Assembly: GCA_934660865.1 (NCBI GenBank)
Contig: CAKUIA010000010.1
Coordinates: forward strand, 30,001-62,000
Direction of reading: 5' to 3'
From: an uncultured Opitutales bacterium
Lineage (GTDB): Bacteria > Verrucomicrobiota > Verrucomicrobiia > Opitutales > Intestinicryptomonadaceae
Length of the DNA: 32,000 nucleotides
Shown: piece by piece, positions 513 to 25,404 of the stretch
Layout: each line of letters begins with the position of its first letter
How positions within the stretch are numbered: position 1 is the stretch's first letter
Made by a program: the position numbers and the translations under genes
Notes under the pieces: generated by a model
Database searches by the model: none
What the model was told of the DNA's origin: nothing
Seen by the model: only the letters and a program-made list of their open reading frames with translations

Positions 513-1871
513 CTACTTTAGCAATACATTGTCGAGATATTTCAGCGCGCCGTCTATGTCGAAGAACTTCCCGTCGAGTTGGGCTTCGTAGGCGGCGCTT
601 AAAATTTGCGAAAACTTCGGCGAAGGCTTTAGTTTGCGCTCTATAAGGTGCCTTCCCAGCAATATGGGCTTTGGGGCCGAGTCTTTTATCTTCAGCTCCT
701 CGGCTCTCGACAAAATCCATTCGCCCTGCGGCGAGCTTTCCGTATATTTTTCGGCGCGGCCCTCGCGGTCGGCCTTGTCTATGCGCACAAGCCTGTCTAT
801 GCGGCCCACTTTGTTTGCAAGCCTGCGTATTGCCGAGTCTCCCGCATTCGAGCGCCACAAATCCAAAATAGCCATGTGTCTTTCGACCAAAACTTTTACG
901 CCGTCGAGCAAAACTTTTTCGTCGCTAATGCGCCTTAAAAATTTTTCGGCCACGGGGCCTCCCAAAATGTCGTGCCCAAGCGAGCGTATGCGCCCCGAGG
1001 CGTCTTTTTTTGTGCAGAGGGGTTTGCCCATGTCGTGGCATAAAACGGCAAGGCCCACAATGGTGTCCTCCTTTTCGTCTCCAATGCGGTCGCGCGCAAA
1101 AGAGTCCATGCAAAGCATTGTGTGGGTGTACACATCGCCTTCCGGGTGCCAAACGGGGTCTTGCGGGCAGCCAACCATTGCCGAAAGCTCGGGGAAATAT
1201 TTTACCCACTTGCAGTCCCTTAAAAACGCAAGGCCCCTCGAAATTTTTTTGCCCTTTAAAATAAGCTTTTTAAATTCCTGAAAAATCCTTTCTTTCGGCA
1301 GGTTTTCCATCGGTATTTTCGAGCAAAGCTCCACCGTTTGCGGGGCAACTTCAAAGTCGAAACGCGCGGCAAACTGCATTGCCCTAAGCACGCGCAGGGG
1401 GTCTTCGGCAAACTTGTCGGAGGTGTGCCTTATAATTTTCCCCGCAAGGTCTTTTTGCCCGTCGAAAGGGTCTGTTATTTCGCCGCTTAAAATGTCGCGC
1501 AGCATTGCGTTTATGGTAAAGTCGCGGCGCGAGCACGCCTCTTTCGGCGAAAGGTATGGGTCGCCAATAATGTCGAACGACTTGTGGCCCAGCCCGTTTT
1601 TGCGCTCCTTTCGGGGCATGCTTACGTCTATGTCCAGCCCCTTTAAAATCCACACCCCAAAGCTTTTGCCGACGGCCTCGAAACGGAATTTTTTAGACAA
1701 AATTTCCTCTATCTGCCCGGGGTTTAGGCCGAAAATCTCCACATCGGTATCTTTCGACTTTATCCCCAAAAGCGAGTCTCTTACGCAGCCGCCCACATAG
1801 TAGGCGCGCCCGCCAAAAGCTGCGGCTTGCGTTGCAATATATCGGCACGCGTCTTTGCTACTGAACGTCAT
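513..1871 (-). CDS. cca: CCA-adding tRNA nucleotidyltransferase with HD domain
   Basis: 452 aa. N-terminal class-II nucleotidyltransferase motif YYVGGCVRDSLLG...DTDVEIFG, followed by RRDFTINA and an HD motif (LCHDMGKP). The ATG at 1871 overlaps the upstream Dabb gene by 14 nt. Confidence 0.85.
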   Translation of the reverse strand: MTFSSKDACRYIATQAAAFGGRAYYVGGCVRDSLLGIKSKDTDVEIFGLNPGQIEEILSKKFRFEAVGKSFGVWILKGLDIDVSMPRKERKNGLGHKSFDIIGDPYLSPKEACSRRDFTINAMLRDILSGEITDPFDGQKDLAGKIIRHTSDKFAEDPLRVLRAMQFAARFDFEVAPQTVELCSKIPMENLPKERIFQEFKKLILKGKKISRGLAFLRDCKWVKYFPELSAMVGCPQDPVWHPEGDVYTHTMLCMDSFARDRIGDEKEDTIVGLAVLCHDMGKPLCTKKDASGRIRSLGHDILGGPVAEKFLRRISDEKVLLDGVKVLVERHMAILDLWRSNAGDSAIRRLANKVGRIDRLVRIDKADREGRAEKYTESSPQGEWILSRAEELKIKDSAPKPILLGRHLIERKLKPSPKFSQILSAAYEAQLDGKFFDIDGALKYLDNVLLK

Positions 1872-2148
1872 ATACCGTTATTTTTGCCCGATATTTTTTA
1901 AGATAGTCTTGTGCGAATTTAACGTGGATAGGGTCGTTAAGATACTGCGAAAGCGTTTGCTGGTCTTTGCACTGAACGCACAAGGCGGCGGCGAAAGTGT
2001 CGTCTACAACGGGTCTTTCGCTGGCGACGGGGCTTCCGAATGTTACGCTTTCGGCGCATTCGATTTGCTTTAGGGTTTGCAGCCCCTCCAAAATTTTGGA
2101 GGCGTTTTCGCCCGATTTTGTCCTTATTACAACAAAGTGCGTTATCAT
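1858..2148 (-). CDS. Stress-responsive dimeric alpha/beta-barrel (Dabb) domain protein
   Basis: 96 aa, single-domain size. It has the typical Dabb pattern: an N-terminal beta strand (ITHFVVIR), a mid-protein G.P/F.A segment, and HVKF...KITVYD at the C-terminus. It starts 5 nt after the ftsZ-like stop. Confidence 0.65.
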   Translation of the reverse strand: MITHFVVIRTKSGENASKILEGLQTLKQIECAESVTFGSPVASERPVVDDTFAAALCVQCKDQQTLSQYLNDPIHVKFAQDYLKKYRAKITVYDVQ

Positions 2149-2153
2149 TTTAC

Positions 2154-2903
2154 TTATACTATAATTTTAAGGTTTCTGCGCAAATAGGTGGGTATATCCA
2201 AATCTTCGCCGTTGTAGAAATTGCGTTTTGTGTCGCCGAAAAAGCCCCTTTGCTCGGAAAGCGAAACGAAGGGAAATTCGTCTTGCGCGAGGTTCTCGCC
2301 CGAGGCGGCTTTCGGCGTTTGGCTCTTTTGCTCGACGGGCGGAATGTCTTTGGGCTTTGCCCTTGTTATTTTCGACATAAACGAGGCTTTCCTTACTTCG
2401 GGCGCGACTTTTTGCGGGGGTATCGTCTGCACATACTGAAAGGATTTCATTATGTCGTTTTGGCGGAATATTTCGCCCACCGACAAATCGTTTGGCAGGC
2501 AAAGCAGGTTTTCGCAATTCTCCCTAAGGCGGGCAAGAGAGGCTCTAGAATAGTCGTCTATCTTGTTGGCAATGGCGCAAACGGCCAGGCGCCCTATGTT
2601 CATCGTCTTGGCGATTTTTGCGAATGCGGCGGTTAGGTGCGCCGATTTGTCGCCCCCGAATTGCGCCAGCAAAATTATGGTAGAATAGCCCTCTATGCTG
2701 CGTTTTATCGAGGCTATTTGAAGTTGCGCGGCTTCGGGGTCGGCGCTGATTAGCATTTTTTCGCCTATCGAAACGCTTTCCAAGTCGGTCTTGTTGGTTG
2801 AAACCGCGCAGCACGCCGCGTTTTTGAACGCGCCGAGCTTGAGTTTTGAAGCCAAAAACGAGCCGCCTTTGCCCACGCCTATAATCTTTATGTTTGCCGC
2901 CAT
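2154..2903 (-). CDS. ftsZ: Truncated, degenerate FtsZ homologue (249 aa): FtsZ N-terminal-domain-like core, disordered linker and canonical FtsZ C-terminal peptide. No tubulin signature and no C-terminal subdomain.
   Basis: Located immediately after ftsA. I prefer the ATG at 2903 over the track's TTG at 2918, because it forms a TAATG overlap with the ftsA stop and has GGAGGA 8 nt upstream. IKIIGVGKGG, AVSTNKTDL and LLCLPNDL align by eye with E. coli IKVIGVGGGG, AVNTDAQAL and LITIPNDKL. The signature position reads QFGGDKS (2643..2663) instead of GGGTGTG. The C-terminus EDLDIPTYLRRN (2175..2207) matches the FtsZ CTP (DIPAFLR). Confidence 0.75.
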   Translation of the reverse strand: MAANIKIIGVGKGGSFLASKLKLGAFKNAACCAVSTNKTDLESVSIGEKMLISADPEAAQLQIASIKRSIEGYSTIILLAQFGGDKSAHLTAAFAKIAKTMNIGRLAVCAIANKIDDYSRASLARLRENCENLLCLPNDLSVGEIFRQNDIMKSFQYVQTIPPQKVAPEVRKASFMSKITRAKPKDIPPVEQKSQTPKAASGENLAQDEFPFVSLSEQRGFFGDTKRNFYNGEDLDIPTYLRRNLKIIV

Positions 2904-4102
2904 TACAAATTCCTCCAAAGCCCCTTTATTTTCGAGAACAAACCTTCGCCCGAATCCGAGGCGTTGCGGATTTCGTTTTCAAGCGCGTAGTCCAAGAGGC
3001 CCAGCGACGTTGCAAATTCGGGGTGGCAAAGCGAATGTTTTACCCACGAATTGAACTTGCCGGTTGTGCATTTTACGCCCAAAACGCCCTCGGCAAGTTC
3101 GTTTATGCCCGTCAGGCGCGAAGTTCCGCCCGTTATTACAACGCTTTGTATGGTCGAGTCGAAAACCTCGCCAAGCTCGTCCCTTAGTATAAGGAAAAGC
3201 TCTTCGAGCCTTGCCCTTATTATTATGTTCATCGAGTTTAGCGATATTTTCCTGTCGCCTATTTGCTGGTCGCCTTTTGTCCAGATAAATTGCGATTTTT
3301 CGTCTTCGCTTATTACCGCCTTGCCTATTTTGCATTTTAAAAGCTCGGCGTTTTTGTTGTAAAGCCTAAGGCCGTGCGCAAGGTCGTTTGTAATGTGGTC
3401 GCCTCCTACGGGAATGGTGCCGGCTATAACTATCCTTGAATTTTTGTACATTGCATAGTCGGTTGTGCCGCAGCCTATGTCTATAACCAAAACCCCCTCC
3501 TTGCGCTGCTGCATGCTAGTTACCATTCTGGCCGACGCAATCGCCGAAAGCACAATGTCGTCTACCTCCATGCCGAAGCTGCGCACAATGTGCACGGTGT
3601 TGGCAATGGCGTCGCAGTCGTCGTGCACAAGCCAAAATTCGGCGTCTATGCGCCTGGCCCGCTTGCCGACGGGGTCTTGGCAGTATACGCCGTCTATGTA
3701 GTAGCCGCAGCAAATAAAATGTATAAAGGCCCTGTTTTCGGGCAATGTTTTGCTTTTTGCGTCTTCGCAGGCTCTGTCTACGTCTTCCTGCGTTACTATG
3801 TTGTTTGCGCTGCGCACGTTCGCATAGCCCATTGTGCGCATACCCTTTATCTGCGAGCCGCTAATGCCCACATATATCGACTTTGTTTTTATGCTCGTGT
3901 TCTTTTCGGCGTCTAAAATGGCCTCCTGCGCCAACTGCGACGCCTTTTTTAAGTCTACAATGTCGCCTTTTTTTACGCCAGCACTGGGTTTTTGCCCCAT
4001 TCCTATAATGCTTAAAGACTCGCCGTCTACAATTTCCCCCACAAAAACCTGCATTTTCGAGGTTCCTATTTCGAGGGCTGCCACCATTTTGCTGTCGTTC
4101 AT
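2903..4102 (-). CDS. ftsA: Cell division protein FtsA (actin-like ATPase)
   Basis: 399 aa. N-terminal VAALEIGTSKM phosphate-1 motif, DIGCGTTD and ITGGTS actin-fold motifs, and a C-terminal amphipathic helix GLFSKIKGLWRNL (membrane-targeting sequence). Sits in the dcw position between ftsQ and ftsZ. Confidence 0.9.
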   Translation of the reverse strand: MNDSKMVAALEIGTSKMQVFVGEIVDGESLSIIGMGQKPSAGVKKGDIVDLKKASQLAQEAILDAEKNTSIKTKSIYVGISGSQIKGMRTMGYANVRSANNIVTQEDVDRACEDAKSKTLPENRAFIHFICCGYYIDGVYCQDPVGKRARRIDAEFWLVHDDCDAIANTVHIVRSFGMEVDDIVLSAIASARMVTSMQQRKEGVLVIDIGCGTTDYAMYKNSRIVIAGTIPVGGDHITNDLAHGLRLYNKNAELLKCKIGKAVISEDEKSQFIWTKGDQQIGDRKISLNSMNIIIRARLEELFLILRDELGEVFDSTIQSVVITGGTSRLTGINELAEGVLGVKCTTGKFNSWVKHSLCHPEFATSLGLLDYALENEIRNASDSGEGLFSKIKGLWRNL

Positions 4103-4116
4103 ATAAAAAAATTATC

Positions 4117-4983
4117 CTATTTTCGCAATTTCATATCAGTACGGCCCTCAAGAGACAAGTCTATTTGCGAGCCCCTTACGGATTTGTCCTTTGCGTATCT
4201 TAAAACATACTCGAGCTTCGAAAGCTGCTTGTTAAAATCGCCCGCCAAAAATATTATCTTAACGTCCTCGTTTGTGTATACTTCAAGCAGCGGCGAAACT
4301 TTCGAGTGCAGGTCGCTTAAATCCACCCTTTGGTAGGTGTTGAAAACCGCGGGCAGCATTTTTTTTGTTTCCTCAAAAAGTTCGTTTACGGTTTTCGCCA
4401 TTGGGTATGCCACATACCTTTGCCCCTGCTTTAAAATCTTTATGCCCGTAAGCTCTACAAGCGAGTCGATTTCCTCTACCTTGTAGCATATGGGCTCGAA
4501 AAATTCGCCGCCGGCCGACATAAGCAAAACGCCGTTGCTTGTGTTTACTTTGGCTATGGGTTTTTTCTCGGTTATGCAGATTTTTATTTGGTCGGGGTAA
4601 ACCCTTTCGGCCTTTGCCGAGTTTACCTGGTTTACGTTTTCGATTTTTCTCTTCAGCGAAATAAGGTCTATCTTGTCGATTGGCGTGGCCTTTTTTATGC
4701 CGAGGTATTCCCTTATCCATTTCGGGCTTATTTTGCCGTCCGGATTGTCTAAAAACAGCTTTTTTGCAACCTGGTTTTTGTTGTATAAAATGTCGTCTAC
4801 AAAGCCCGACTGCACCGCCTTGTATGCGCCAAAGACCAGGGCGGCCAGCAACAGCGCAAAGCCGCATATTTTGCAAAATATAGCAAACTTTCTGAATTTT
4901 GCCTCGAAAGACAGGGGGGCTTTTTTCGAGCTTTTGCTTTTGCCTATGTCCTTCCAGGTTTTAGACTTTTGTTTTGTCGCCAT
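4117..4983 (-). CDS. ftsQ: Cell division protein FtsQ/DivIB (bitopic, POTRA domain)
   Basis: Basic cytoplasmic tail, one TM segment (FAIFCKICGFALLLAALVFGAY), then a POTRA-like periplasmic domain. I prefer the ATG at 4983 (MATKQKSK...), which forms a TAATG overlap with the ddl stop. The track start at 5031 would overlap ddl by 49 nt. Confidence 0.75.
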   Translation of the reverse strand: MATKQKSKTWKDIGKSKSSKKAPLSFEAKFRKFAIFCKICGFALLLAALVFGAYKAVQSGFVDDILYNKNQVAKKLFLDNPDGKISPKWIREYLGIKKATPIDKIDLISLKRKIENVNQVNSAKAERVYPDQIKICITEKKPIAKVNTSNGVLLMSAGGEFFEPICYKVEEIDSLVELTGIKILKQGQRYVAYPMAKTVNELFEETKKMLPAVFNTYQRVDLSDLHSKVSPLLEVYTNEDVKIIFLAGDFNKQLSKLEYVLRYAKDKSVRGSQIDLSLEGRTDMKLRK

Positions 4984-5897
4984 TAGCAGTTTAAAAACCT
5001 TTGTATTGCGGGTTTTACCATTTCGTTGCACAGGTCGTCAAAACTTAAACCCATGCACGACGCGCTTTTGGGCAGCAGGCTTGTGGGCGTCATTCCCGGA
5101 AGCGTGTTTATTTCAAGCGCTATAAAAGAAGTTTCGCCCAAAATAAAGTCCACCCTGCAAAAGTCCCGACAGCCGCATGCCGCATAGGCGCGCTCGGCTG
5201 CGGTCTGTATTTTTACGGTATTTTCGTCGCCTATTTTGGCGGGAAATTCGTACTTTGTAGAGCCCGCCGTATACTTGCGCTTAAAGTCGTATACGCCGCC
5301 TTCGGGCTTTATTTCCACAATGCCCATTGCGCGGCCGTTTAAAACGCCAACCGACAATTCGCGCCCCTTAAAAAAGCTTTCGGCCATCCATTGCCCCTTG
5401 TCCAAATCCGTTAGGGCCTTGTCGGTTTCGGCCGCGCCCTCTGGGCATTTTAGCCCGACGCTTGAGCCTTTGTCGGCTGGTTTGATAACCGTTTTGTTTC
5501 CCAAAATTTCGACAAGGCTTGCCCCCGAAATTTTGTCGGAGGAATCGAACAAAATTTCCCTTGCCGTATTTATGTTTGCCGAGCGCATAAGCGCCTTTGC
5601 GGCGGGTTTAACCATGCAAACTAAGCTCGACAAACTGCCGCAGCCTGCAAACGCAATGCCCGCACTTTCCAAGTCGCGCTGAAGCCCGCCGTTTTCGCCG
5701 TAGTCGCCGTGCATTACGGGCATTACAACGTAGTTTTTTTTGTCCAGCTTTTCGGGCAGTTTATTTTCGGCAAGCTCGAATTTTTCCACATCGTAGAATT
5801 TTTCGAGAGCCTTTGCCACATAGTTGCCGCTTACAAGCGAAACGTCTCTTTCGGGCGAAATTCCGCCGCAAAGCACGGCCAATTTAAAACTTTTCAT
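4983..5897 (-). CDS. ddl: D-alanine--D-alanine ligase
   Basis: 304 aa. N-terminal LCGGISPERDVSLVSG, ATP-grasp core (VIKPADKGSSVGL, ...EINTLPGMT). The start forms an ATGA overlap with the murC stop. Confidence 0.9.
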   Translation of the reverse strand: MKSFKLAVLCGGISPERDVSLVSGNYVAKALEKFYDVEKFELAENKLPEKLDKKNYVVMPVMHGDYGENGGLQRDLESAGIAFAGCGSLSSLVCMVKPAAKALMRSANINTAREILFDSSDKISGASLVEILGNKTVIKPADKGSSVGLKCPEGAAETDKALTDLDKGQWMAESFFKGRELSVGVLNGRAMGIVEIKPEGGVYDFKRKYTAGSTKYEFPAKIGDENTVKIQTAAERAYAACGCRDFCRVDFILGETSFIALEINTLPGMTPTSLLPKSASCMGLSFDDLCNEMVKPAIQRFLNC

Positions 5898-7114
5898 TTT
5901 TCTGATATAAACTCCTTTGCCTTAAAATAAATGTCTCCCGCTCCCACAAAAGCCGCCGTATATTTTTTGCCGCCTGTCTTTAGCGATTCGACGGTTTTCT
6001 GCATGTCCGAAAATTCCACCTTTTTTAGCAGTTGCGAATTTTGCGTTATTTTGTCGGAAGTTCCAAGCTCGTCGAACCTTTCGCTTGCCGCATAAACGGG
6101 CAAAACGTAGACGCTGTTGCCGAGTTTTGCAAAATCCTCCAATATTTGCGCAAAGGTTTTTGCAAAGCGTTTTGTTCTGGAATATCTGTGCGGCTGGAAA
6201 AATAGAATGCTTTTGTTGCCGTATTTTTTGCCGAACCACTTTAGGAAGGCTTTAACCTCGTTGGGGTGGTGCGCGTAGTCGGCCATAGCAAAAATGTGCG
6301 GGGTGTTGCACAAAACTTCCTGCCTGCGGTATGTGCCTTCGAAGGTGTCCAACACGCCGCAGTCCAAATTTTGCCCGAAAACGCTCTTTAGCGCGCACTG
6401 CGCCATAAGCGTGTTTATTGTCGAAAAGTCGGCATCGGGCCGAATTTGCACAATCTCGAAATTTTTGCCCGAGGCTTTTGCCAATTCGCACAATGTTTCG
6501 TCGCAGCTTGGCACTATTATCTTTTGCTTTGTCCTTTCAAAAAGCCTGCAAAACATATTTTTAAGCTCGTCGGCGTTTTTGTAGGTGTCGGTGTGGTCTA
6601 AATCGTAGTTTAGCGCAACGCAAATTTCGGGCGAAAAGTTTTCTATTGTAGCGTCGCTTTCGTCTATCTCCGAAAATATGTATTCGCCGTCTTTGCAGAA
6701 TTTTGCGGGGGCGTAGTGCTCCGACAGGGCGCCGACCATGTAGCCCGCATTTAGCGCAAGTTTGTTTATCGCGTGCGCGCAAAGATTGCTTACCGTGCTT
6801 TTGCCGTGGCTGCCCGTTATGGCTACAAGCTTTCGGGTTTTGCAAAAGTCGGCAAAGCAAACGCCGCGCCTTTGCGTTTTTGCCGCGCTTTTCAAATTGC
6901 GGCCGCAAAGGGCCGTGCTTATTACGAACAAGTCGGGCCTAACGTTTTCGTCGAAAGAGCTTTTACAGTCTATGCCGAATTTTTGCAGAAGCTTTTTTAC
7001 GCGAATGTCGGCGTTGTCGTCGAAGCCGAAAACCGTGTTGTTGCCGGCCTTAAGCAGAATGGCCAAAGGCGCCATTCCCATTCCGCAAATGCCTCCCATG
7101 TACACTACGCCCAT
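5894..7114 (-). CDS. murC: UDP-N-acetylmuramate--L-alanine ligase (compact, 406 aa)
   Basis: Mur ligase motifs ITGSHGKSTVSN (P-loop), DYAHHPNEV and FQPHRYSRT, which are typical of MurC/Mpl. Sits in the dcw position between murG and ddl. Confidence 0.85.
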   Translation of the reverse strand: MGVVYMGGICGMGMAPLAILLKAGNNTVFGFDDNADIRVKKLLQKFGIDCKSSFDENVRPDLFVISTALCGRNLKSAAKTQRRGVCFADFCKTRKLVAITGSHGKSTVSNLCAHAINKLALNAGYMVGALSEHYAPAKFCKDGEYIFSEIDESDATIENFSPEICVALNYDLDHTDTYKNADELKNMFCRLFERTKQKIIVPSCDETLCELAKASGKNFEIVQIRPDADFSTINTLMAQCALKSVFGQNLDCGVLDTFEGTYRRQEVLCNTPHIFAMADYAHHPNEVKAFLKWFGKKYGNKSILFFQPHRYSRTKRFAKTFAQILEDFAKLGNSVYVLPVYAASERFDELGTSDKITQNSQLLKKVEFSDMQKTVESLKTGGKKYTAAFVGAGDIYFKAKEFISEK

Positions 7115-9375: not shown

Positions 9376-10578
9376 TTATATTTCTATAACTTCGTCTTCG
9401 CCGGCTTTTTGTTCGGGGGCGGGAGCCGCCTGCTGAACCTGCACGGGTTGTGCGGGCTGTGCGGGTTGTGTTTGTACGGGCTTGGGCTGTTCTACAGCCT
9501 TGTTTTCGACGGGAGCTATTGCCTGCGCCTTTTGTTCGGGGGCGGGAGCGGTCTTCTGAACCTGTACGGGTTGTTGTGCCTGTATCTGCTTGGGTTGTTC
9601 TTTTTCTTCGGCTTTTACCCTTATTTTTACCGCTTGGCCGATTTTAAGCCTTTTGGGGTTAATGGAGGGGTTAAGCTTTTCTATCTGCGAAAGGCTAACC
9701 TTGTTTTTTCTGGCTATTGCGCCCAAAGTGTCGCCCTTTTGAACTTTGTATACTTCGAAATTGCCCGAAACTTCGCTTTTGGCGGCTACGCTTTGCGGTT
9801 TTGCCGAAGCTGATTTTTCCGATTTTGTTTCGGAGGCCGTCTTGCCCGACTTTTCAAGCGTAAGGGTTTGGCCTACGCGGATAATGTCGTTCTTTAAGTT
9901 GTTTAGGGCCTTTATTTGCGAAACGGTTGTATTGTGGCGCTTTGCGATTTTGCCGAGAAAGTCGCCTTTTTGCACCTTGTATTTTATGGTGTCGGTGCCT
10001 ACGCTTTCAACCGAAGCCATTGCTTGCGCTTTGGGGGCGGCTTGGTTTACCACTTCGTCGGAGTCTTTTACGGGAACGATAAGCTCCTGACCGACTTTTA
10101 TTGTGGGGCTGCTTAAGCTGTTTAGGCTTTTTATTTTCGAAACTGTTGTAGAAAACTTCCTTGCGATTTTGCCGAGCGAGTCGCCCTTGGCTACCGTATA
10201 CATTTTCGTGTTTTCGGGCAGCTGCTTTTCGCTTTTCGCCGTAAGGGTAGAGGGCGCAATCAAGCCTTCGTTTGCCTGCGCTTTGGGAGAAAGTGTAGAC
10301 GGCTCGCTTTCGACTATAACGGGCTTGTTTTTGCCGTTGTCCATCGACCAAACGGGTCTTGTTGGGTTTGCCCTTAGCGCCGAGCTGCCCTCGGGGGCTT
10401 CTTCCTGGACGGGGGTGTTTGCCTCAACCTTTTCTTCGTTTGCGGGAACTATTTCGGCGTTAACGTCTTTTTCGGTTTTTTGCTCGCTTGCCGAGTTGCA
10501 GCCCGACTGTGCGAATATAAGCAAGCCTACCGCAATATGCAGGGCGGCAATGGCCGTTATTGTAAGTGAGTTTTTCAT
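9376..10578 (-). CDS. Secreted (possibly lipidated) protein with three LysM peptidoglycan-binding domains and a P/Q/A-rich repeated C-terminus
   Basis: 400 aa. Signal peptide ending AQSGC (Cys27, non-canonical lipobox). LysM units at about aa 127-169, 200-241 and 277-321 (Y[TK]V.KGD.LG.IA[RK]...L.....I.VGQ.L). C-terminus is QPVQVQ.xAPAPEQKA x2. Confidence 0.85.
   Translation of the reverse strand: MKNSLTITAIAALHIAVGLLIFAQSGCNSASEQKTEKDVNAEIVPANEEKVEANTPVQEEAPEGSSALRANPTRPVWSMDNGKNKPVIVESEPSTLSPKAQANEGLIAPSTLTAKSEKQLPENTKMYTVAKGDSLGKIARKFSTTVSKIKSLNSLSSPTIKVGQELIVPVKDSDEVVNQAAPKAQAMASVESVGTDTIKYKVQKGDFLGKIAKRHNTTVSQIKALNNLKNDIIRVGQTLTLEKSGKTASETKSEKSASAKPQSVAAKSEVSGNFEVYKVQKGDTLGAIARKNKVSLSQIEKLNPSINPKRLKIGQAVKIRVKAEEKEQPKQIQAQQPVQVQKTAPAPEQKAQAIAPVENKAVEQPKPVQTQPAQPAQPVQVQQAAPAPEQKAGEDEVIEI
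9403..9573 (-). repeat. Two copies of a ~46-nt coding repeat, 123 nt apart, inside the LysM gene tail
   Basis: 9407..9452 and 9530..9575 match (ttttgttcgggggcgggagcNgNctNctgaacctgNacgggttgt) with 4 mismatches. They encode QPVQVQ(K/Q)(T/A)APAPEQKA at aa 336-351 and 377-392. Confidence 0.8.
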
Positions 10579-19354: not shown

Positions 19355-19819
19355 TTAGAAAACGAGATTTGCCCAAACTTCGTTCGGGTCTTCGCCGTCG
19401 TCTTCGTTTATGAACTTGTCGAAGCGTTCGGGATCCCAAATCTGGAATGTTTGGTAGGCACCTACAAGTATTGCGTCTTTGGCTATTCCCGCCATGGACA
19501 TAAGCTTGTCGGTTAGGCTGATTCTGCCTTGTTTGTCGCAGCCAAACCTTTCGCCGTTGCGGAATATTTTTAAAAGAACGCGCTGGCGCGAGGGGTTTGT
19601 AAGCCCCGCCTGCGAAATCTTTTCGTCCAACTTTTCAAGCATATTGGGCGGATACACCGTTATCGAACCGTTTGGATTGGGCAAAGCAAGGTAGGCGTTG
19701 TCTTTGTCGTCGCCGGAAAAGCGCCATTTTGCGGGCACTATAAGCCTGCGCTTATCGTCCAGCGAACGCTTGTATTCGCCGGCGTAATAGTAGGCTCTCT
19801 CTTTTATTTCCGAAGACAT
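19355..19819 (-). CDS. mraZ: Transcriptional regulator MraZ
   Basis: Two SpoVT/AbrB-type half-domains carrying the DxxxR motifs (LDDKRRLIVPAKWR and CDKQGRISLTDKL). I call the ATG at 19819 (154 aa; AAGGGAGAA just upstream). The ATG at 19849 (164 aa) is an alternative. The track start at 20089 runs across a terminator and low-complexity DNA and is rejected. Confidence 0.85.
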   Translation of the reverse strand: MSSEIKERAYYYAGEYKRSLDDKRRLIVPAKWRFSGDDKDNAYLALPNPNGSITVYPPNMLEKLDEKISQAGLTNPSRQRVLLKIFRNGERFGCDKQGRISLTDKLMSMAGIAKDAILVGAYQTFQIWDPERFDKFINEDDGEDPNEVWANLVF

Positions 19820-19847
19820 TTTCTCCCTTAATTTACCATTTTCCTCC

Positions 19848-19875
19848 ATTCTTACCCAAAACCCTCCATTGTCAA
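19848..19875 (-). promoter_or_regulatory. Candidate proximal dcw promoter: TTGACA-N16-AAGAAT (minus strand)
   Basis: The reverse complement of 19848..19875 reads TTGACAATGGAGGGTTTTGGGTAAGAAT. If used, it would place the transcription start at or near the 19849 ATG, which favours the 19819 start for mraZ. Confidence 0.3.
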
Positions 19876-19880
19876 GCAGT

Positions 19881-19910
19881 ATTATCCCAAAATCGGCCAA
19901 TTTTTTGCAA
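19881..19910 (-). promoter_or_regulatory. Candidate distal dcw promoter: TTGCAA-N18-GATAAT with TGn extended -10 (minus strand)
   Basis: The reverse complement of 19881..19910 reads TTGCAAAAAATTGGCCGATTTTGGGATAAT. The -35 hexamer is the same one found in the rubredoxin promoter candidate. Confidence 0.35.
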
Positions 19911-19946
19911 AAATTTAGCCTTTTTTGCCCAAAAGTTTTAATTTTC

Positions 19947-19969
19947 AAAAAAAATGCCCCCACGGGGGC
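19947..19969 (-). terminator. Intrinsic terminator (minus strand) ~100 nt upstream of mraZ
   Basis: The minus strand reads GCCCC-CGTG-GGGGC-A-TTTTTTTT. This is a 5-bp all-GC stem, a 4-nt loop and a T8 tail. Confidence 0.6.
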
Positions 19970-20655
19970 TCCAAAAGCCGCCAAAAAAAGGGGCAAAATT
20001 TGAGTTTTTAAATAAAAAGGTACAAAAAAAGAATATTTTGTTGCGCTGTGTATAAAAATTTTTGCGTTGCGCGCAAAAAGCAGTGGCAAGCGCAGTTGGC
20101 CAAAATATATAACTTATTGCAAAGCCGATATATGCAAACAAAGATTTTATGGAATAAAACCCGCAAGATTTGCGTTTGCCGTGCAAAACAATTAAGAGAT
20201 TGCAAAGCTTTTTGCGCTAAAAAATCGTTTTTTATAAGATGTTTTTTTTCGCACCTTTTGGCCGCATTTATTCGGGTTTTGCAAAAAAAACAAAGGGCAG
20301 GTTTTCGCCTAAAAAAATGGCGGTTTTTTGCAAAAATTTTGGCGGGTTTTAAATCCAAAAAGGGCTTTTTTTGCCGCGCAAACAAGGCTTTTTTTTGGGG
20401 GTAAAATTGCGCAAAAAAAAGCGTTTTACGAATATATTTATGGGCAAAATATGGGGCAAAATAGCGCCGTTTTGCGCTCAAAAAACCGTGTTTTTTTATG
20501 GTAAACGCCGTAATAAGACGCCGTAAAACCCCCGCAATTTATATGGCAAACACAGCGATTTTCACGGTAAACAAGGGCGCTTTTTTCCCGATTTTATGCC
20601 GAAAACAAGCCGTGCTTTTTGTCTTTTATTTGCGTTAAAAGTGTTTTTCGGGGCA

Positions 20656-20722: not shown

Positions 20723-23539
20723 CTATTTCCTGCGGCGGTATATCGCCAAAGCCAAGGCCAAAGCTCCGAAAATTGCAGCCCATGTTGCGGGTTCGGGAAC
20801 TTCGAATGTTACATACATGCAGCCGTCGGCGTCGCCTTCGGTGAACTTTGCTATGTATTGGTCGCCAGTTGCCTTGTCTATGTATGTATAAGTTGCGCCG
20901 CTGTCGAGGATTTCCTTTAAGAAGGCGTTAGTTATATTTTCCTCTTCGGTAAACGAGAAGAGCAAAGTTTCCATATTCAATATGCCGGCAATGTTGCAGA
21001 ATACAAAGTCTGTCGACAAAATTTCGCCGCTAAGCTTCGAGCCGTCGGTAAGGTTAATCGACACGTCGCTGCCCATGCTAAAGTCGAACATGAACGAAGC
21101 GCCGCTTTCCTTAACAATGTTTGCAACATTCAAACCGTTGCCCGCCGCGCCTAAAAATGCGCCGCTTTTTACGGTAATTGTTGTATTGCCGTCGGTTCTG
21201 TTCATAAGCAACGTGCCTTCGTTTACGGTGGTAGTTCCCTTGTAGGTGTTGTTGCCGCCTAGAACTTGCGTGCCAGTGCCGTTTTTAACAATGTTTACAA
21301 CCTGGGCCGCCTTGCCGGACTCGTCGGAGATGCTGCCTGTATATTTGCCCGAACCGTTAAGGTTTAGCGTGTAGGTAATCCAGTCGGAATTGCCGTCTAG
21401 CTTAATTGTGCCGTAGCCGTTAAGGTTGCCGATATTGGCTGTTTTTTCCACAATGGCGCCGTCTGCACCGGTGTCTTTAAATGCAAATTCAAGCACGCCG
21501 CCGTTGCCCAAGTTTACGTTGTCGAGGTGCGAATAGCCTGTGTAGCCGTTCAACTCGCTTGTGCCAACCGAGCCGATGTGCAACCTTGTGCCTGCGTCTA
21601 GGTTTACGTTTTTAATATGAACTGCGCCCGCTTCGCCCACCGTGGTGTTAACTTCGGTCCAAGCGTAAAGCTCGCCGCCGTAGCCTGCCGAATTTTTTAC
21701 AACCGCGTTTACGGTGTCGATTTCAACGCTCTTTGTGCCGCGTACATTAAAGTAAACTACGCCCGCGCCGTTTATTGCATTTGTAAGCGAAATGTCGTTT
21801 ACGGTAATGCCCTGGTGGCCCGAAACTTCGCTGGAATTTGCCGTGCGAACATTGCCCGTAACTTTTTCGACCAAAAGTTTTGTGCCGGTAAAGTTTTCGG
21901 CGCCAATGCCGCCGTCGGAAACGGAAATGCCGTCTTCTATATTAAGTACGCCTATTTTCGCGCTTACCGTGCTAAAAGTGCTGAGCCAGTGCGACTGCTT
22001 TGCATAGCCCAAAACGTTTATTTTGTCTATAACCAAGGCGTAGTCGTCGCCGTAGTCTTTTTTACCTGTGTTTATACGGAATTCGCCAACTCTGTATGTT
22101 TTTGCGTCGGCGCTTTCGCCGCCCTGGAATGTCAGGTTTTCTATTGTTGCGGGGCCGCCGTTGCTTCTAATTTGGGCGTAGTTGTCGGTAATGCCGTTTG
22201 CTTCGTTTTCGGACGAAACAAGGTTGGTCAATATCGTTATATTCTTTGCCGAGAATGCGCCCGAGTCGGAAACGTAGAACAAGTGGTCTACGCCTTTTGC
22301 ATTTGCATCTCCTTCAACGTCTTTTGCATAGCGCGAAAAACCGCCGCCTATTGTGAGGTTGTCGAACGAAACGTTTGTGCCGTAGATGTCTACATAGCGC
22401 GCGCCTTTGTCGATTGTAGTGTTCTTTTCGCCCGAGCCGTATACTTCAAAATCGGAGAAGTGCGCTGCGTTTGTTTTTGCGTTAAACACAACCCTGCTTG
22501 CGGTTTTGGAATATAGCGAAGAACCTTCCTGGAAGTCTATACCCGCACCGTTTAGGTTGATATAGCCACCGATGTTGTTTATTTTAGAACCGTTTGTAAA
22601 CACCATCTTGCCCGCGTTTGTATTCGAGCCTATTGTGCCTTCGTTGTTGATAACGGCGTTTATGGTGTTGTCGCCCGTATTGTTGTCGATTGCGATTGTG
22701 CCGGTTGACTTGTTGTTTATAACACCCGAAAGCGCTTGGTTGCCCGCATATTGGCTATTTTGAATTACGGTTATTGTGCCGTAGTTATTGAAGTTGTTGC
22801 CTGCGGCAATAAATTCGGTATTAGCCCAAATGTTGATGTTGCCGTAGTTGTTTGTAGAACCCATTACGGCTTTAACTTGCTGATCGGCGTTTTCAAACTG
22901 TTTGCCCTGAATGGTAATGCTGGAGCCTTCGCCAATTTCGTTTACAAACATGTCGCTAATAGTTTCCCACTGTTGCTTTGTTTCGTTGTAAATGGCGTTT
23001 AGCTTTATAAGCGCGCATGTATTTTCAAACTGAAGCGTGCGCGAATTTTCTATGCTTACATAGCCCAAGTCTATAGACTTCCATGCGTGTGTTGTAAGCG
23101 CATTGAGGTTGTCGGGCCTAAAAACAATGTTTTTGTCGCCTCTAACTGTAAGGCCGCCCGTTACGGTGAAGTTGTTGTTTGCATTGTTTACGGCAACAAT
23201 CGCAAAGCTTGAATTGCTTGGTGAAGCTTTTGTGGAATCAAAATCTAACAAAATGCTTGCAACGTTCAATTCGAATCCTTGCGTGTGCATACGGTTCGAG
23301 ACTTGTGTGCCGCCGTCTTCTTCAACAGGGTCGTACGAATCGAATATTAGGTTGTCGTCTTTTGTGGGGACGCGGTTAAGCTTGTTGCCCTCGGCATCGC
23401 GCCAGTTGCTGGCATTTCTGCCGTTGTCGTCGCGCGACCCGTACAGGTAGCGCCAATACATTTCATCTGCTGGAGCGTTTACCGACATTGCCGATACAGC
23501 CGCCGCAACGAATATTGTTTTTAGGTATGATAGTTTCAT
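20723..23539 (-). CDS. Large secreted PEP-CTERM-anchored surface protein with autotransporter-associated beta-strand (PATR) repeat and probable beta-helix
   Basis: I call the start at the ATG at 23539 (MKLSYLKTIFVAAAVSAMSVNAPA signal peptide; 938 aa). The body is N/G/T/S-rich and repetitive, resembling a beta-helix. GTGTQVLGGNNTYKGTTTVNEGTLLMN matches the PATR repeat. The C-terminus VPEPATWAAIFGALALALAIYRRRK is a textbook PEP-CTERM sorting signal (PEP + TM + basic tail). Confidence 0.8.
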   Translation of the reverse strand: MKLSYLKTIFVAAAVSAMSVNAPADEMYWRYLYGSRDDNGRNASNWRDAEGNKLNRVPTKDDNLIFDSYDPVEEDGGTQVSNRMHTQGFELNVASILLDFDSTKASPSNSSFAIVAVNNANNNFTVTGGLTVRGDKNIVFRPDNLNALTTHAWKSIDLGYVSIENSRTLQFENTCALIKLNAIYNETKQQWETISDMFVNEIGEGSSITIQGKQFENADQQVKAVMGSTNNYGNINIWANTEFIAAGNNFNNYGTITVIQNSQYAGNQALSGVINNKSTGTIAIDNNTGDNTINAVINNEGTIGSNTNAGKMVFTNGSKINNIGGYINLNGAGIDFQEGSSLYSKTASRVVFNAKTNAAHFSDFEVYGSGEKNTTIDKGARYVDIYGTNVSFDNLTIGGGFSRYAKDVEGDANAKGVDHLFYVSDSGAFSAKNITILTNLVSSENEANGITDNYAQIRSNGGPATIENLTFQGGESADAKTYRVGEFRINTGKKDYGDDYALVIDKINVLGYAKQSHWLSTFSTVSAKIGVLNIEDGISVSDGGIGAENFTGTKLLVEKVTGNVRTANSSEVSGHQGITVNDISLTNAINGAGVVYFNVRGTKSVEIDTVNAVVKNSAGYGGELYAWTEVNTTVGEAGAVHIKNVNLDAGTRLHIGSVGTSELNGYTGYSHLDNVNLGNGGVLEFAFKDTGADGAIVEKTANIGNLNGYGTIKLDGNSDWITYTLNLNGSGKYTGSISDESGKAAQVVNIVKNGTGTQVLGGNNTYKGTTTVNEGTLLMNRTDGNTTITVKSGAFLGAAGNGLNVANIVKESGASFMFDFSMGSDVSINLTDGSKLSGEILSTDFVFCNIAGILNMETLLFSFTEEENITNAFLKEILDSGATYTYIDKATGDQYIAKFTEGDADGCMYVTFEVPEPATWAAIFGALALALAIYRRRK

Positions 23540-23638
23540 TGTTGTGTAAGTTAAATATAGTGGGAAGTTTGAATTTAACAAAAGGAAAGTAGGCTTTTGA
23601 TTTTGTAAAGTCAACCGAATTTTTGATACAGCAGGTTA

Positions 23639-23652
23639 TTTTTTTTTTTTTT
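23639..23652. repeat. Homopolymeric T14 (A14 on the coding strand) tract ~100 nt upstream of the PEP-CTERM gene
   Basis: Counted directly: t at 23639-23640 plus twelve t at 23641-23652. Confidence 0.95.
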
Positions 23653-23856
23653 GAATAAAATGTGATATTTAAATAATCTGTGCAACAGTGTAAATGTTAG
23701 TAAGTTATGTATTTAATGTTAGAATTTGCCCTTGTTTGTTTTGGTATTTTTGGCGTTATTTGATTAACCTATAAAACACAACTTGTGCAATTTTATTAAA
23801 GCAAGTAGTATAAATATATTTTGCGGTTTTCTCATGTAAAATTTTTACAGGGGCGC

Positions 23857-23887
23857 AAAAAAATGCGCGTCTTTTGGGGCGCGCATT
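23857..23887 (-). terminator. Intrinsic terminator of the glycoside-hydrolase-like gene
   Basis: The minus strand reads AATGCGCG-CCCCAAAAGA-CGCGCATT-TTTTT. This is an 8-bp stem and a 10-nt loop, 29 nt after the stop at 23916. Confidence 0.65.
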
Positions 23888-23915
23888 AAAAAAAAGGTTA
23901 ATATTTATTAAAAGA

Positions 23916-25241
23916 CTATTGGCCTTTGTCGGTTTTTGCCTTTACCGTGTCGTAGATTTCGGCAAGGTAGTCGTCGAAATTTTCGTCTACCTCCTTCATT
24001 GGGTCTTTTGGTCTCCAATTATTTTCGTAAACGCAAAAGCGCCCCTTGTTGAAGATGTCGGTAAAGTCCCAACCATAGTTTGTGGAACTTTTTATCGTAT
24101 TCTTTAGCAGGGCTGGGGTTTCGGCGCCCCTAAAGTCGCTGCCGTTAAGCGTCATATGCTCGCTTATTGCCCAGTTGCGGTTTAGTATGCGGTTTATAGC
24201 CCTTACCCTTGCATACGCCTTGTCGTTTGGCGACCTTGTTTTTAAGTGCCAGCTCCAGTTTACCTGAATTATCTGCACGTCTTTAAGCGAAGCTAAAAAT
24301 ATTTCGGGGTTGCCCATGCGGTTTCGCATTGTCTCTTCAAGCGCGTCCAAATAGTCTACCGCCGCAAATACGGGCTTTTTGTAGGCGTCTTTAAAGGCTT
24401 TTATATCTTGGCTAACCCAGTCGCCCAAATTTTCGGCAAGGAAAATCCCGAAAACGGGGCTGTCTAAAAATTCGCGGCTTACGGGGTATTCGGCGGGCAT
24501 TTCGGGGGCGGGTATGGCGTTGTTTTGTATGTATTCTTTATACGCCTTTCTTGCCGCGGGCGAAAAATCCAAAGTTTTGTTGCCTATATATTGGGGTTCT
24601 ACGGTGCTTTCGAAATTTAGAATGTCTTTGTCGGCCAAAGCGCGGGCAAGGTTTGCGATATACAGGCGCGTGGCCTTAAGGTAGTTTTTGTCGAACAGCG
24701 AGGGAACGGCGGTGCCCTTGCCGTATTCGTCGTCTATGCACTTTTTGCCCGTGCTGTCTATTGCAATGGCGTCGGGAAAGCGCTTGAAAAACTGTTTGGG
24801 TATTGTGCCGCCGCCAACGCCGTAGGTTTCTACCGCAATGCTGGCAAACATTCCAAGCTCGTTAATTTTGTCGATTACCGCCTTTAGGGGGGCGGTGTCT
24901 ACGTCTATTGTGCCGTCGCCGTCGCGGTCGAACTGGTGCCAGTAGCAGTTTAAAACAAGGTTGTTAAAGCCCTTTTCCTTTATCACGGGCAGGTCTTCGG
25001 CGATAAAGCGCTCGCACTCTTTTTTGCTGCCGAAATTGCGCAGGGGCTTGCCCGTTTTTAAAAATGTGTATTTGCCGTCTACGTAAAGCCTGCCTTTGTA
25101 TAATTGGCAAAGCTTGCCGTTAACTTTTGCCTGATATGCAACCTTTGCGCCCTTGGGCAAAAGAATGTCGCCCGAGTCTGCGCGGGCGGTAAATGCAAAT
25201 GTAGTTAAAAACAAAAAAAGTAGCGCTTTTATGATATTCAT
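23916..25241 (-). CDS. Secreted glycoside-hydrolase-like TIM-barrel protein (GH42-like layout; family tentative)
   Basis: I call the start at the ATG at 25241 (MNIIKALLFLFLTTFAFTARA signal peptide; 441 aa). Segments NCYWHQFD..., FPDAIAIDSTGKK, FESTVEPQYIG and DFSPAARKAYKEYIQ parallel the order of conserved blocks in GH42-type beta-galactosidases. CDS confidence is high; the functional call is weak. Confidence 0.45.
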   Translation of the reverse strand: MNIIKALLFLFLTTFAFTARADSGDILLPKGAKVAYQAKVNGKLCQLYKGRLYVDGKYTFLKTGKPLRNFGSKKECERFIAEDLPVIKEKGFNNLVLNCYWHQFDRDGDGTIDVDTAPLKAVIDKINELGMFASIAVETYGVGGGTIPKQFFKRFPDAIAIDSTGKKCIDDEYGKGTAVPSLFDKNYLKATRLYIANLARALADKDILNFESTVEPQYIGNKTLDFSPAARKAYKEYIQNNAIPAPEMPAEYPVSREFLDSPVFGIFLAENLGDWVSQDIKAFKDAYKKPVFAAVDYLDALEETMRNRMGNPEIFLASLKDVQIIQVNWSWHLKTRSPNDKAYARVRAINRILNRNWAISEHMTLNGSDFRGAETPALLKNTIKSSTNYGWDFTDIFNKGRFCVYENNWRPKDPMKEVDENFDDYLAEIYDTVKAKTDKGQ

Positions 25242-25335
25242 CTTTGGCAATGTGTGTAAAAGTTGTTCGCGGCAATTACTAATTTTGCAAAATTTTGTGT
25301 CAAGCGCAAAGCCGTAAAAACACCCGCAAAATATA

Positions 25336-25376
25336 CAAAAAAACGAAACGCCCCCCGAAAAAAGGAGAGCGTTTCG
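25336..25376 (-). terminator. Probable intrinsic terminator of rpmG
   Basis: The minus strand reads CGAAACGC-(17 nt loop)-GCGTTTCG-TTTTTTT, starting 29 nt after the rpmG stop. The loop is long, so confidence is moderate. Confidence 0.5.
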
Positions 25377-25404
25377 CAAAAAAACGGTTATCTAAAAATA
25401 AAAA

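Follow-up and report, generated by a model that had tools for sequence, protein, structure and literature searches.

The gene examined in this work lies in a 32,000-nucleotide stretch of DNA from an uncultured Opitutales bacterium (GenBank assembly GCA_934660865.1, contig CAKUIA010000010.1, positions 30,001 to 62,000 of the forward strand), to which we refer as the window. It follows ftsA directly, in the slot of ftsZ, and encodes a 249-residue protein that we named hZ, for half-FtsZ (window 2154..2903, minus strand). This protein joins a remnant of the FtsZ N-terminal subdomain, through a linker, to an FtsZ-type C-terminal tail, and is devoid of the T3 loop, of the GTP-binding signature and of the whole C-terminal subdomain. 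We favor, with a probability of about 0.55, the reading that hZ is an ftsZ orthologue degenerated in place, a pseudo-GTPase that would build no protofilaments and may act as a divisome adaptor tethered to FtsA. The gene and its immediate surroundings are as follows.

Window 2154..2903, minus strand: hZ coding sequence, 249 amino acids, with the ATG at 2901-2903 and the TAA at 2154-2156.
Window 2911..2916, minus strand: GGAGGA ribosome-binding site of hZ, 7 nucleotides 5' of the ATG and within the 3' end of ftsA.
Window 2903..4102, minus strand: ftsA, 399 amino acids, translationally coupled to hZ.
Window 2430..2903, minus strand: what is left of the nucleotide-binding N-terminal subdomain of FtsZ, residues 1-158, with an alternating beta-alpha fold, supported by hidden Markov models, AlphaFold2 and Foldseek.

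A preliminary description of this stretch, made from the sequence alone, had placed the gene in the ftsZ slot after ftsA, and the features on which it relied can be read directly in the sequence: the ftsA stop and the hZ start overlap as TAATG, and the GGAGGA site precedes them. One NCBI record, MDY6069366.1 (P0040, from one genome assembly), starts the gene at an upstream TTG (window 2904..2918, minus strand), giving a protein of 254 residues that begins with MEEFVMAAN. The ATG at 2903 is the more likely start because of the GGAGGA site and the TAATG coupling.

The same description had taken the protein to be derived from FtsZ. This was confirmed by sequence profiles and by a structural model, all of which led to FtsZ, although the homology is weak and confined to the N-terminal subdomain. 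Against TIGR00065, hZ scored 33 bits (cut-off 295), with residues 3-160 matching model positions 18-193, and against the Pfam family Tubulin (PF00091) it scored 18 bits (cut-off 33). All seven members of the hZ family, presented below, fell well under the level of the PF00091 cut-off (best E-value 0.0006), and a Pfam search found no match to FtsZ_C (PF12327) in hZ or in the other members. Among the 45 matches listed by phmmer in the PDB sequences, the top 43 were FtsZ chains, and hZ residues 3-164 aligned with residues 18-198 of Staphylococcus aureus FtsZ. Moreover, a profile made from seven family representatives matched only FtsZ chains in the PDB (best E-value 5.5e-11). A lack of profile homology, which the preliminary description had raised as a possible objection, was thus not what we found. 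The AlphaFold2 model, built from seven sequences only, shows a beta-alpha-beta domain. Up to residue ~140 its predicted local distance difference test (pLDDT) score is ~65-90, for the most part 75-90; the score declines to ~50 at residue 158, and the rest of the chain is disordered. When this model was compared with the PDB by Foldseek, the top 50 matches were all FtsZ (E ~5e-9, probability 1.0).

The elements lost or altered in hZ were called from alignments with Escherichia coli FtsZ and with the full-length FtsZs of relatives. They are listed here in the order of the protein.

Window 2862..2879, minus strand: GVGKGG, remnant of the T1 loop, identified by alignment.
Window 2736..2747, minus strand: KMLIS/ADPE, junction of the T3-loop deletion, with 14 residues gone; common to 7/7 family members.
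Window 2643..2663, minus strand: QFGGDKS, degenerate T4, aligned with E. coli GMGGGTG.
Window 2568..2573, minus strand: junction of the T5-loop deletion, with five residues of the PFxFE motif gone; common to all family members.
Window 2484..2498, minus strand: LPNDL, T6 motif, present in this lineage.
Window 2421..2441, minus strand: FQYVQTI, truncation junction, where the chain passes from the first turns of H7 straight into the linker.

The T1 loop, GGGGxN in canonical FtsZ, reads GVGKGGSF and its GxGxxG pattern is invariant in the family, but the residue equivalent to E. coli G20 is Lys or Asn and that equivalent to N24 is Phe, so that the conserved Gly and Asn of T1 are gone. In T2, NTD has become STN. 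The tubulin signature GGGTGTG (E. coli G105-G111; general form GGGTG[ST]G) is GGDKSAH in hZ. No family member deviates at Q81, F82 or D85, the last of which stands in place of E. coli G107. The T6 motif LPNDL is not kept in other members, which have LSSDM or FPNSL. The fold ends after KSFQYV, early in H7, and ~130 residues are absent, comprising the rest of H7, T7 (NxDxxD) and strands S7-S10; based on both the alignment and the model, the entire C-terminal subdomain, with the T7 synergy loop, is missing. The replacement of the GTP signature by QFGGDKS, the deletion of the T3 region after KMLIS and the end of the globular part in early H7 had all been noticed in the preliminary description and were borne out by the alignments. 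It had missed the five-residue T5 deletion, the loss of the T1 Asn, the lack of conservation of LPNDL in the family and the extent of the C-terminal module (~45 residues).

In characterised FtsZs, T3 is a gamma-phosphate sensor and a longitudinal contact, and the roles of T3, T4 and T7 are well established. The phosphate, ribose and guanine contacts would all be compromised in hZ, and both longitudinal interfaces of the filament, namely the T3/nucleotide face and the T7 face, appear to be gone. Because the roles of T3, T4 and T7 are established in FtsZ, we infer that hZ is unable to form a canonical GTP-hydrolysing protofilament.

Past the truncation junction, hZ retains the parts by which FtsZ would reach FtsA.

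Window 2292..2420, minus strand: disordered linker, residues 162-204, pLDDT <50.
Window 2349..2384, minus strand: SFMSKITRAKPK, conserved basic motif of the linker.
Window 2157..2291, minus strand: LAQDEFPFVSLSEQRGFFGDTKRNFYNGEDLDIPTYLRRNLKIIV, C-terminal module, residues 205-249 (45 residues).
Window 2175..2207, minus strand: EDLDIPTYLRR, FtsA-binding peptide predicted by conservation, core of the C-terminal module.
Within ftsA (window 2903..4102), minus strand: GLFSKIKGLWRNL, C-terminal amphipathic helix of FtsA, intact.

The C-terminal module is 71-76% identical across the hZ family and 56-62% identical to the tails of full-length Opitutales FtsZs, being typical of the FtsZs of Opitutales and Puniceicoccaceae; it is because of this shared module that full-length FtsZs were recovered at all by our sequence searches. 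The C-terminal peptide recognized in the preliminary description is present in its core, where every family member has EDLD[IV]PTYLR[RK], the counterpart of DYLDIPAFLRK in E. coli and the canonical peptide for FtsA/ZipA binding. Such conservation suggests that the hZ tail docks on FtsA. The FtsA encoded upstream (276 bits against TIGR01174) is unremarkable in its sequence. Its 2B subdomain, to which the FtsZ peptide binds in the Thermotoga maritima complex, is well conserved in the hZ clade. The search for compensatory changes in FtsA gave a single replacement specific to this clade at a site conserved elsewhere, and a control clade also had one.

The linker motif occurs in the hZ family as SFMSKITRAKPK, SFIDKIIGRKPKK or SLFDRLKPDRK, and similar motifs are found in the linkers of the full-length FtsZs of two sister lineages (SRMVSKIKSRFLKEKPKP in L022 and RRGFFVFGKKKG in L021). 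It is basic, partly amphipathic, located just upstream of the tail, and resembles the C-terminal membrane helix of FtsA. As a membrane-targeting helix, SFMSKITRAKPK was unconvincing, its hydrophobic moment being moderate (0.24-0.42).

An exhaustive phmmer search of 1.84 billion cluster representatives yielded two more representatives with the same architecture, P0048 (248 amino acids, 47% identity) and P0049 (243 amino acids, 42%). When ~5.8 billion clusters at 90% identity were searched with a profile, six hZ clusters in all, of 243-249 amino acids, were found. Profile scores dropped from 354 bits for the weakest hZ to 130 bits for the best full-length FtsZ, and no form intermediate between the two was found in either search. 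The orthologues are 35-41% identical in the N-domain and 41-49% overall, and share the same three deletions and the same synteny. Among the bacterial and archaeal species-representative genomes, which we scanned with hZ-tail patterns that are blind to other ftsZ genes, only three hZ loci were found: in a metagenome-assembled genome from the Hadza human gut (CAKTSY01), in SUG3736 (JAXFOH01) and in FM_35_G125_V (JAWXTY01).

Every hZ lineage has hZ in the slot ftsQ-ftsA-hZ. A neighbor-joining tree of FtsA grouped these lineages in a single clade with a bootstrap of 98%. Beyond the family, the nearest FtsA sequences were ~55% identical and belonged to related Opitutales lineages. In the two lineages of the sister clade that we examined, ftsA is directly followed by a full-length ftsZ, of 477 and 422 amino acids, with Tubulin and FtsZ_C domains; the hZ N-domain is 21-23% identical to these FtsZs, compared with 56-67% for the tails. 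The monophyly seen in the FtsA tree, the full-length ftsZ that the sister lineages have in this slot and the shared linker motif and tail show that hZ has a single origin and derives in place from the ftsZ resident there.

Some features of the relatives deserve mention. The FtsZ of L021 is very divergent, its N-domain being 28% identical to that of E. coli. In full-length FtsZs of Opitutales and Puniceicoccaceae relatives (L021:7194-8627, L022:7207-8475, P0203, P0200, P0050, P0051 and P0002), T7 has the form N-x-D-F-x-[T/S/M], in which the second Asp of NxDxxD is not Asp. This second Asp (E. coli D212) is important for GTPase activity. An unrelated protein of 304 amino acids, P0179, consists of an FtsZ N-domain only, with the T3 loop apparently absent (LLLSQSDAMESRD), the signature GLGGDAGT and a Cys-rich C-terminus without an FtsZ tail, and may be a separate kind of truncated FtsZ-like protein.

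The same open reading frame, or near-identical variants of it, recurs in numerous independent assemblies (ENA, Logan, JGI and NCBI), with contigs as long as 594 kb. In all, >60 blocks of independent assemblies contain the gene, the identical protein (P0001) among them, and the order ftsA-hZ-Dabb-CCA is constant across these. The preliminary description had argued against a frameshift artefact and had considered that an assembly deletion might have removed part of the gene. No such deletion was found, and the dozens of independent assemblies with the same architecture, the orthologues and the selection on the gene all show a genuine half-length protein. The ratio of nonsynonymous to synonymous substitution rates (dN/dS) was obtained by comparing the window allele with the L007-L010 allele, which share 96% amino-acid and 88% nucleotide identity at a dS of ~0.7. 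For hZ as a whole it was 0.03, with 0.02 in the N-domain, 0.10 in the linker and 0 in the tail, where no nonsynonymous change separates the strains. Neighboring genes ranged in this comparison from 0.008 (ftsA) to 0.11 (ddl). Two further sublineages gave dN/dS values of 0.075 and 0.10 for hZ, dS being 0.7-1.2 over the comparisons.

Based on these data, we propose that T3, part of T5, most of H7, T7 and the C-terminal subdomain were lost through one set of in-frame deletions in an ancestor of the clade, and that substitutions ruined the phosphate-binding signature. What remained would be a folded pseudo-GTPase N-domain, a disordered linker and an extended C-terminal module with the FtsA-binding peptide. 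Such a protein would neither bind nor hydrolyse GTP and would not assemble head to tail into FtsZ protofilaments, while its tail could still dock on membrane-bound FtsA. It would then work as a divisome adaptor, either non-polymerizing or oligomerizing in some unconventional way, with the conserved surface of the N-domain binding something else, and septal peptidoglycan synthesis by FtsW/FtsI would be organized by FtsA instead of a treadmilling Z ring. Family-invariant residues lie largely on the loops of the former pocket (G9, G11 and G14 in T1; S35 in T2; Q81, F82 and D85 in T4; C109, I111 and K114 in T5; E144, F146 and Q148 just past T6). Because so many of them line the old pocket, we think that the nucleotide site may have been converted to a new binding surface instead of having simply decayed.

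Some considerations weigh against this proposal. The loss of GTP binding and of polymerization is deduced from the roles that T1 to T7 play in characterised FtsZs, and the retained GxGxxG, with its conserved pocket, could still allow some ligand to bind. Similarly, the binding to FtsA is predicted from the conservation of the tail, and there may be a canonical ftsZ, or a different tubulin homologue, elsewhere in hZ genomes, of which our survey covered the hZ loci and the matches to tail patterns. In addition, every sequence comes from a metagenome assembly of an uncultured organism.

The second ftsZ is at the center of the strongest alternative, which we nevertheless consider unlikely: a canonical FtsZ (or BtubAB, or another tubulin-like polymer) would be encoded elsewhere, and hZ would be a decoy or competitor for the FtsA site, or a regulator of the attachment of the Z ring. 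The best-conserved part of hZ is precisely the FtsA-binding tail, as a competitor would need, and a second ftsZ may lie outside the loci that our scans covered. However, hZ stands in the ancestral ftsZ slot, which holds a full-length gene in the two sampled sister lineages, so that a second copy would have to stem from acquisition or from a duplication at an earlier time. The close full-length FtsZs that we found by tail similarity and examined also speak against it: the best full-length matches (P0200, P0203 and P0002), like those beside the closest non-hZ FtsA proteins (P0301 and P0298), were all in the dcw (division and cell wall) slot of another organism, next to its own ftsA. Moreover, the N-domain is strongly constrained (dN/dS 0.02-0.16 over the sublineages compared), which would be needless for a pure tail decoy, and the destruction of its filament-contact face (T3 and nucleotide) would prevent it from capping a canonical FtsZ or co-polymerizing with it. 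A metagenome scan with a profile of full-length Opitutales FtsZ recovered 80 environmental Verrucomicrobia ftsZ loci, 0 of them from hZ-bearing samples, and therefore carries no weight for or against a second copy.

It is improbable, in our view, that the N-domain remnant has a remodelled pocket in which it binds a nucleotide or another ligand, and that it forms a non-canonical scaffold by assembling with itself via a new interface. The retention of GxGxxG and the many invariant residues on the loops of the old pocket would fit such a scaffold, and FtsZl1 has been proposed to polymerize without T6-H7 or a recognisable FtsZ-type C-terminal domain (Makarova & Koonin 2010, PMC2875224). Against this stand the invariant Asp that the phosphate loop has where E. 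coli has G107, the deletion of the T3 loop and of the T5 ribose contacts, and the loss of the H7 residues that contact guanine; no oligomer interface is predicted by the present data. The likeness to FtsZl1 is also partial. FtsZl1 too has an FtsZ-like N-domain, without T6-H7 or a recognisable FtsZ-type C-subdomain, and canonical filaments are doubtful for it as well, but this protein has a coiled-coil region and a C-terminal domain of its own (PMC2875224), whereas hZ past residue 158 consists of the disordered linker and an FtsZ-type tail.

That the gene is a pseudogene in decay, or an artefact of assembly or of a frameshift, is effectively refuted: hZ is under every curated family threshold and is annotated as hypothetical, but its reading frame is intact at 243-249 amino acids in six 90%-identity clusters and many independent assemblies, the deletions and the synteny recur in divergent orthologues, dN/dS ranges over 0.03-0.10 at dS 0.7-1.2, and the ribosome-binding site and the translational coupling to ftsA are conserved.

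A further step is to regard the hZ clade of gut Verrucomicrobiota, with its genes for peptidoglycan synthesis and its complete dcw cluster, as having no polymerizing FtsZ GTPase at all. Its sole FtsZ-derived protein would then be the FtsA-tethered 249-residue pseudo-GTPase, a living intermediate on the way to the division without FtsZ of Chlamydiota and Planctomycetota, and FtsA together with FtsW/FtsI would organize the septum. We advance this only tentatively, at somewhat less than even odds.

Compared with the canonical FtsZs of sister gut Opitutales and of Puniceicoccaceae, hZ shares the fold of the N-subdomain, the dcw slot after ftsA, the linker motif and the 45-residue module with DLDIPTYLRR, but lacks T3, GGGTGSG, the T5 PFxFE, the core of H7, T7 and the C-terminal subdomain, and has 249 amino acids instead of 420-480. 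Natural truncated variants of FtsZ exist, such as FtsZm of magnetotactic bacteria and chloroplast FtsZ1. In these the truncation is the opposite one: both globular subdomains and the GTPase are kept, the C-terminal tail is gone, and a canonical FtsZ is co-resident. GTP-driven treadmilling filaments of FtsZ are regarded as the organizer of division in nearly all walled bacteria.

In the Planctomycetes-Verrucomicrobia-Chlamydiae (PVC) superphylum, Chlamydiota and Planctomycetota have no ftsZ, and Verrucomicrobiota have been described as retaining it (PMC5147048, PMC12283558). The hZ clade resembles the first two in belonging to this superphylum and in having probably lost canonical FtsZ function while keeping peptidoglycan synthesis and other dcw genes. 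It differs from them in keeping a conserved ftsZ remnant along with ftsA, ftsQ, ftsW and ftsI. A family-wide survey of FtsZ and tubulin described verrucomicrobial FtsZ as highly divergent and made no mention of a truncated form (PMC9871819), and we found no description of a truncated FtsZ in Verrucomicrobia, Opitutales or CAG-312 in the literature. The hZ members have no Pfam domain on record, and every one of them is annotated as a hypothetical protein (at NCBI, "hypothetical protein [Opitutales bacterium]"), which indicates that annotation pipelines miss such remnants. The possibility that the architecture had already been catalogued, contemplated in the preliminary description, found no support in these records; hZ is an uncatalogued form of FtsZ.

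These results bear on how some lineages of the PVC superphylum came to lose FtsZ. In the hZ clade, the GTPase and the polymer interfaces appear to have gone from a conserved protein that retains a folded N-domain and the predicted FtsA-binding tail, so that division in these walled bacteria may do without a normal FtsZ ring. If there is no second FtsZ, the scaffold role of FtsZ would be separable from its role as a polymerase and able to outlast it. The clade would then represent a concrete intermediate toward FtsZ-less division and a natural system in which to see what FtsA and FtsW/FtsI need from FtsZ.

The remaining features concern the neighborhood of hZ, the end gene of a complete dcw cluster that runs up to mraZ in the order mraZ, rsmH, ftsI, murE, murF, mraY, murD, a LysM gene, ftsW, murG, murC, ddl, ftsQ, ftsA and hZ.

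Window 4117..4983, minus strand: ftsQ, with a POTRA domain; start as in public assemblies.
Window 5894..7114, minus strand: murC, stand-alone, 406 amino acids.
Window 9376..10578, minus strand: gene of a LysM-domain protein, 400 amino acids, between murD and ftsW.
Window 19355..20089: mraZ, at the far end of the dcw cluster.
Window 1858..2148, minus strand: gene of the Dabb family, 5 nucleotides downstream of hZ, overlapping the gene of the CCA-adding enzyme.
Window 513..1871, minus strand: gene of the CCA-adding enzyme, after the Dabb gene.

The order hZ-Dabb-CCA is common to all hZ lineages. In the relatives examined, the Dabb (stress-responsive A/B barrel) and CCA genes do not follow the full-length ftsZ. 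The LysM gene is found within the dcw cluster in all the Opitutales loci examined that reach that far upstream. A stand-alone murC is also present in the hZ and sister clades, and the more distant L017 has a murC-murB fusion of 721 amino acids (L017:4575-6740); there is no murB within this window. Beyond mraZ, at window 20723..25379, there is a 963-residue PATR autotransporter-repeat protein and an open reading frame of 487 amino acids without a Pfam match, in a region with a GC content of 0.43-0.45, compared with ~0.49-0.51 elsewhere.

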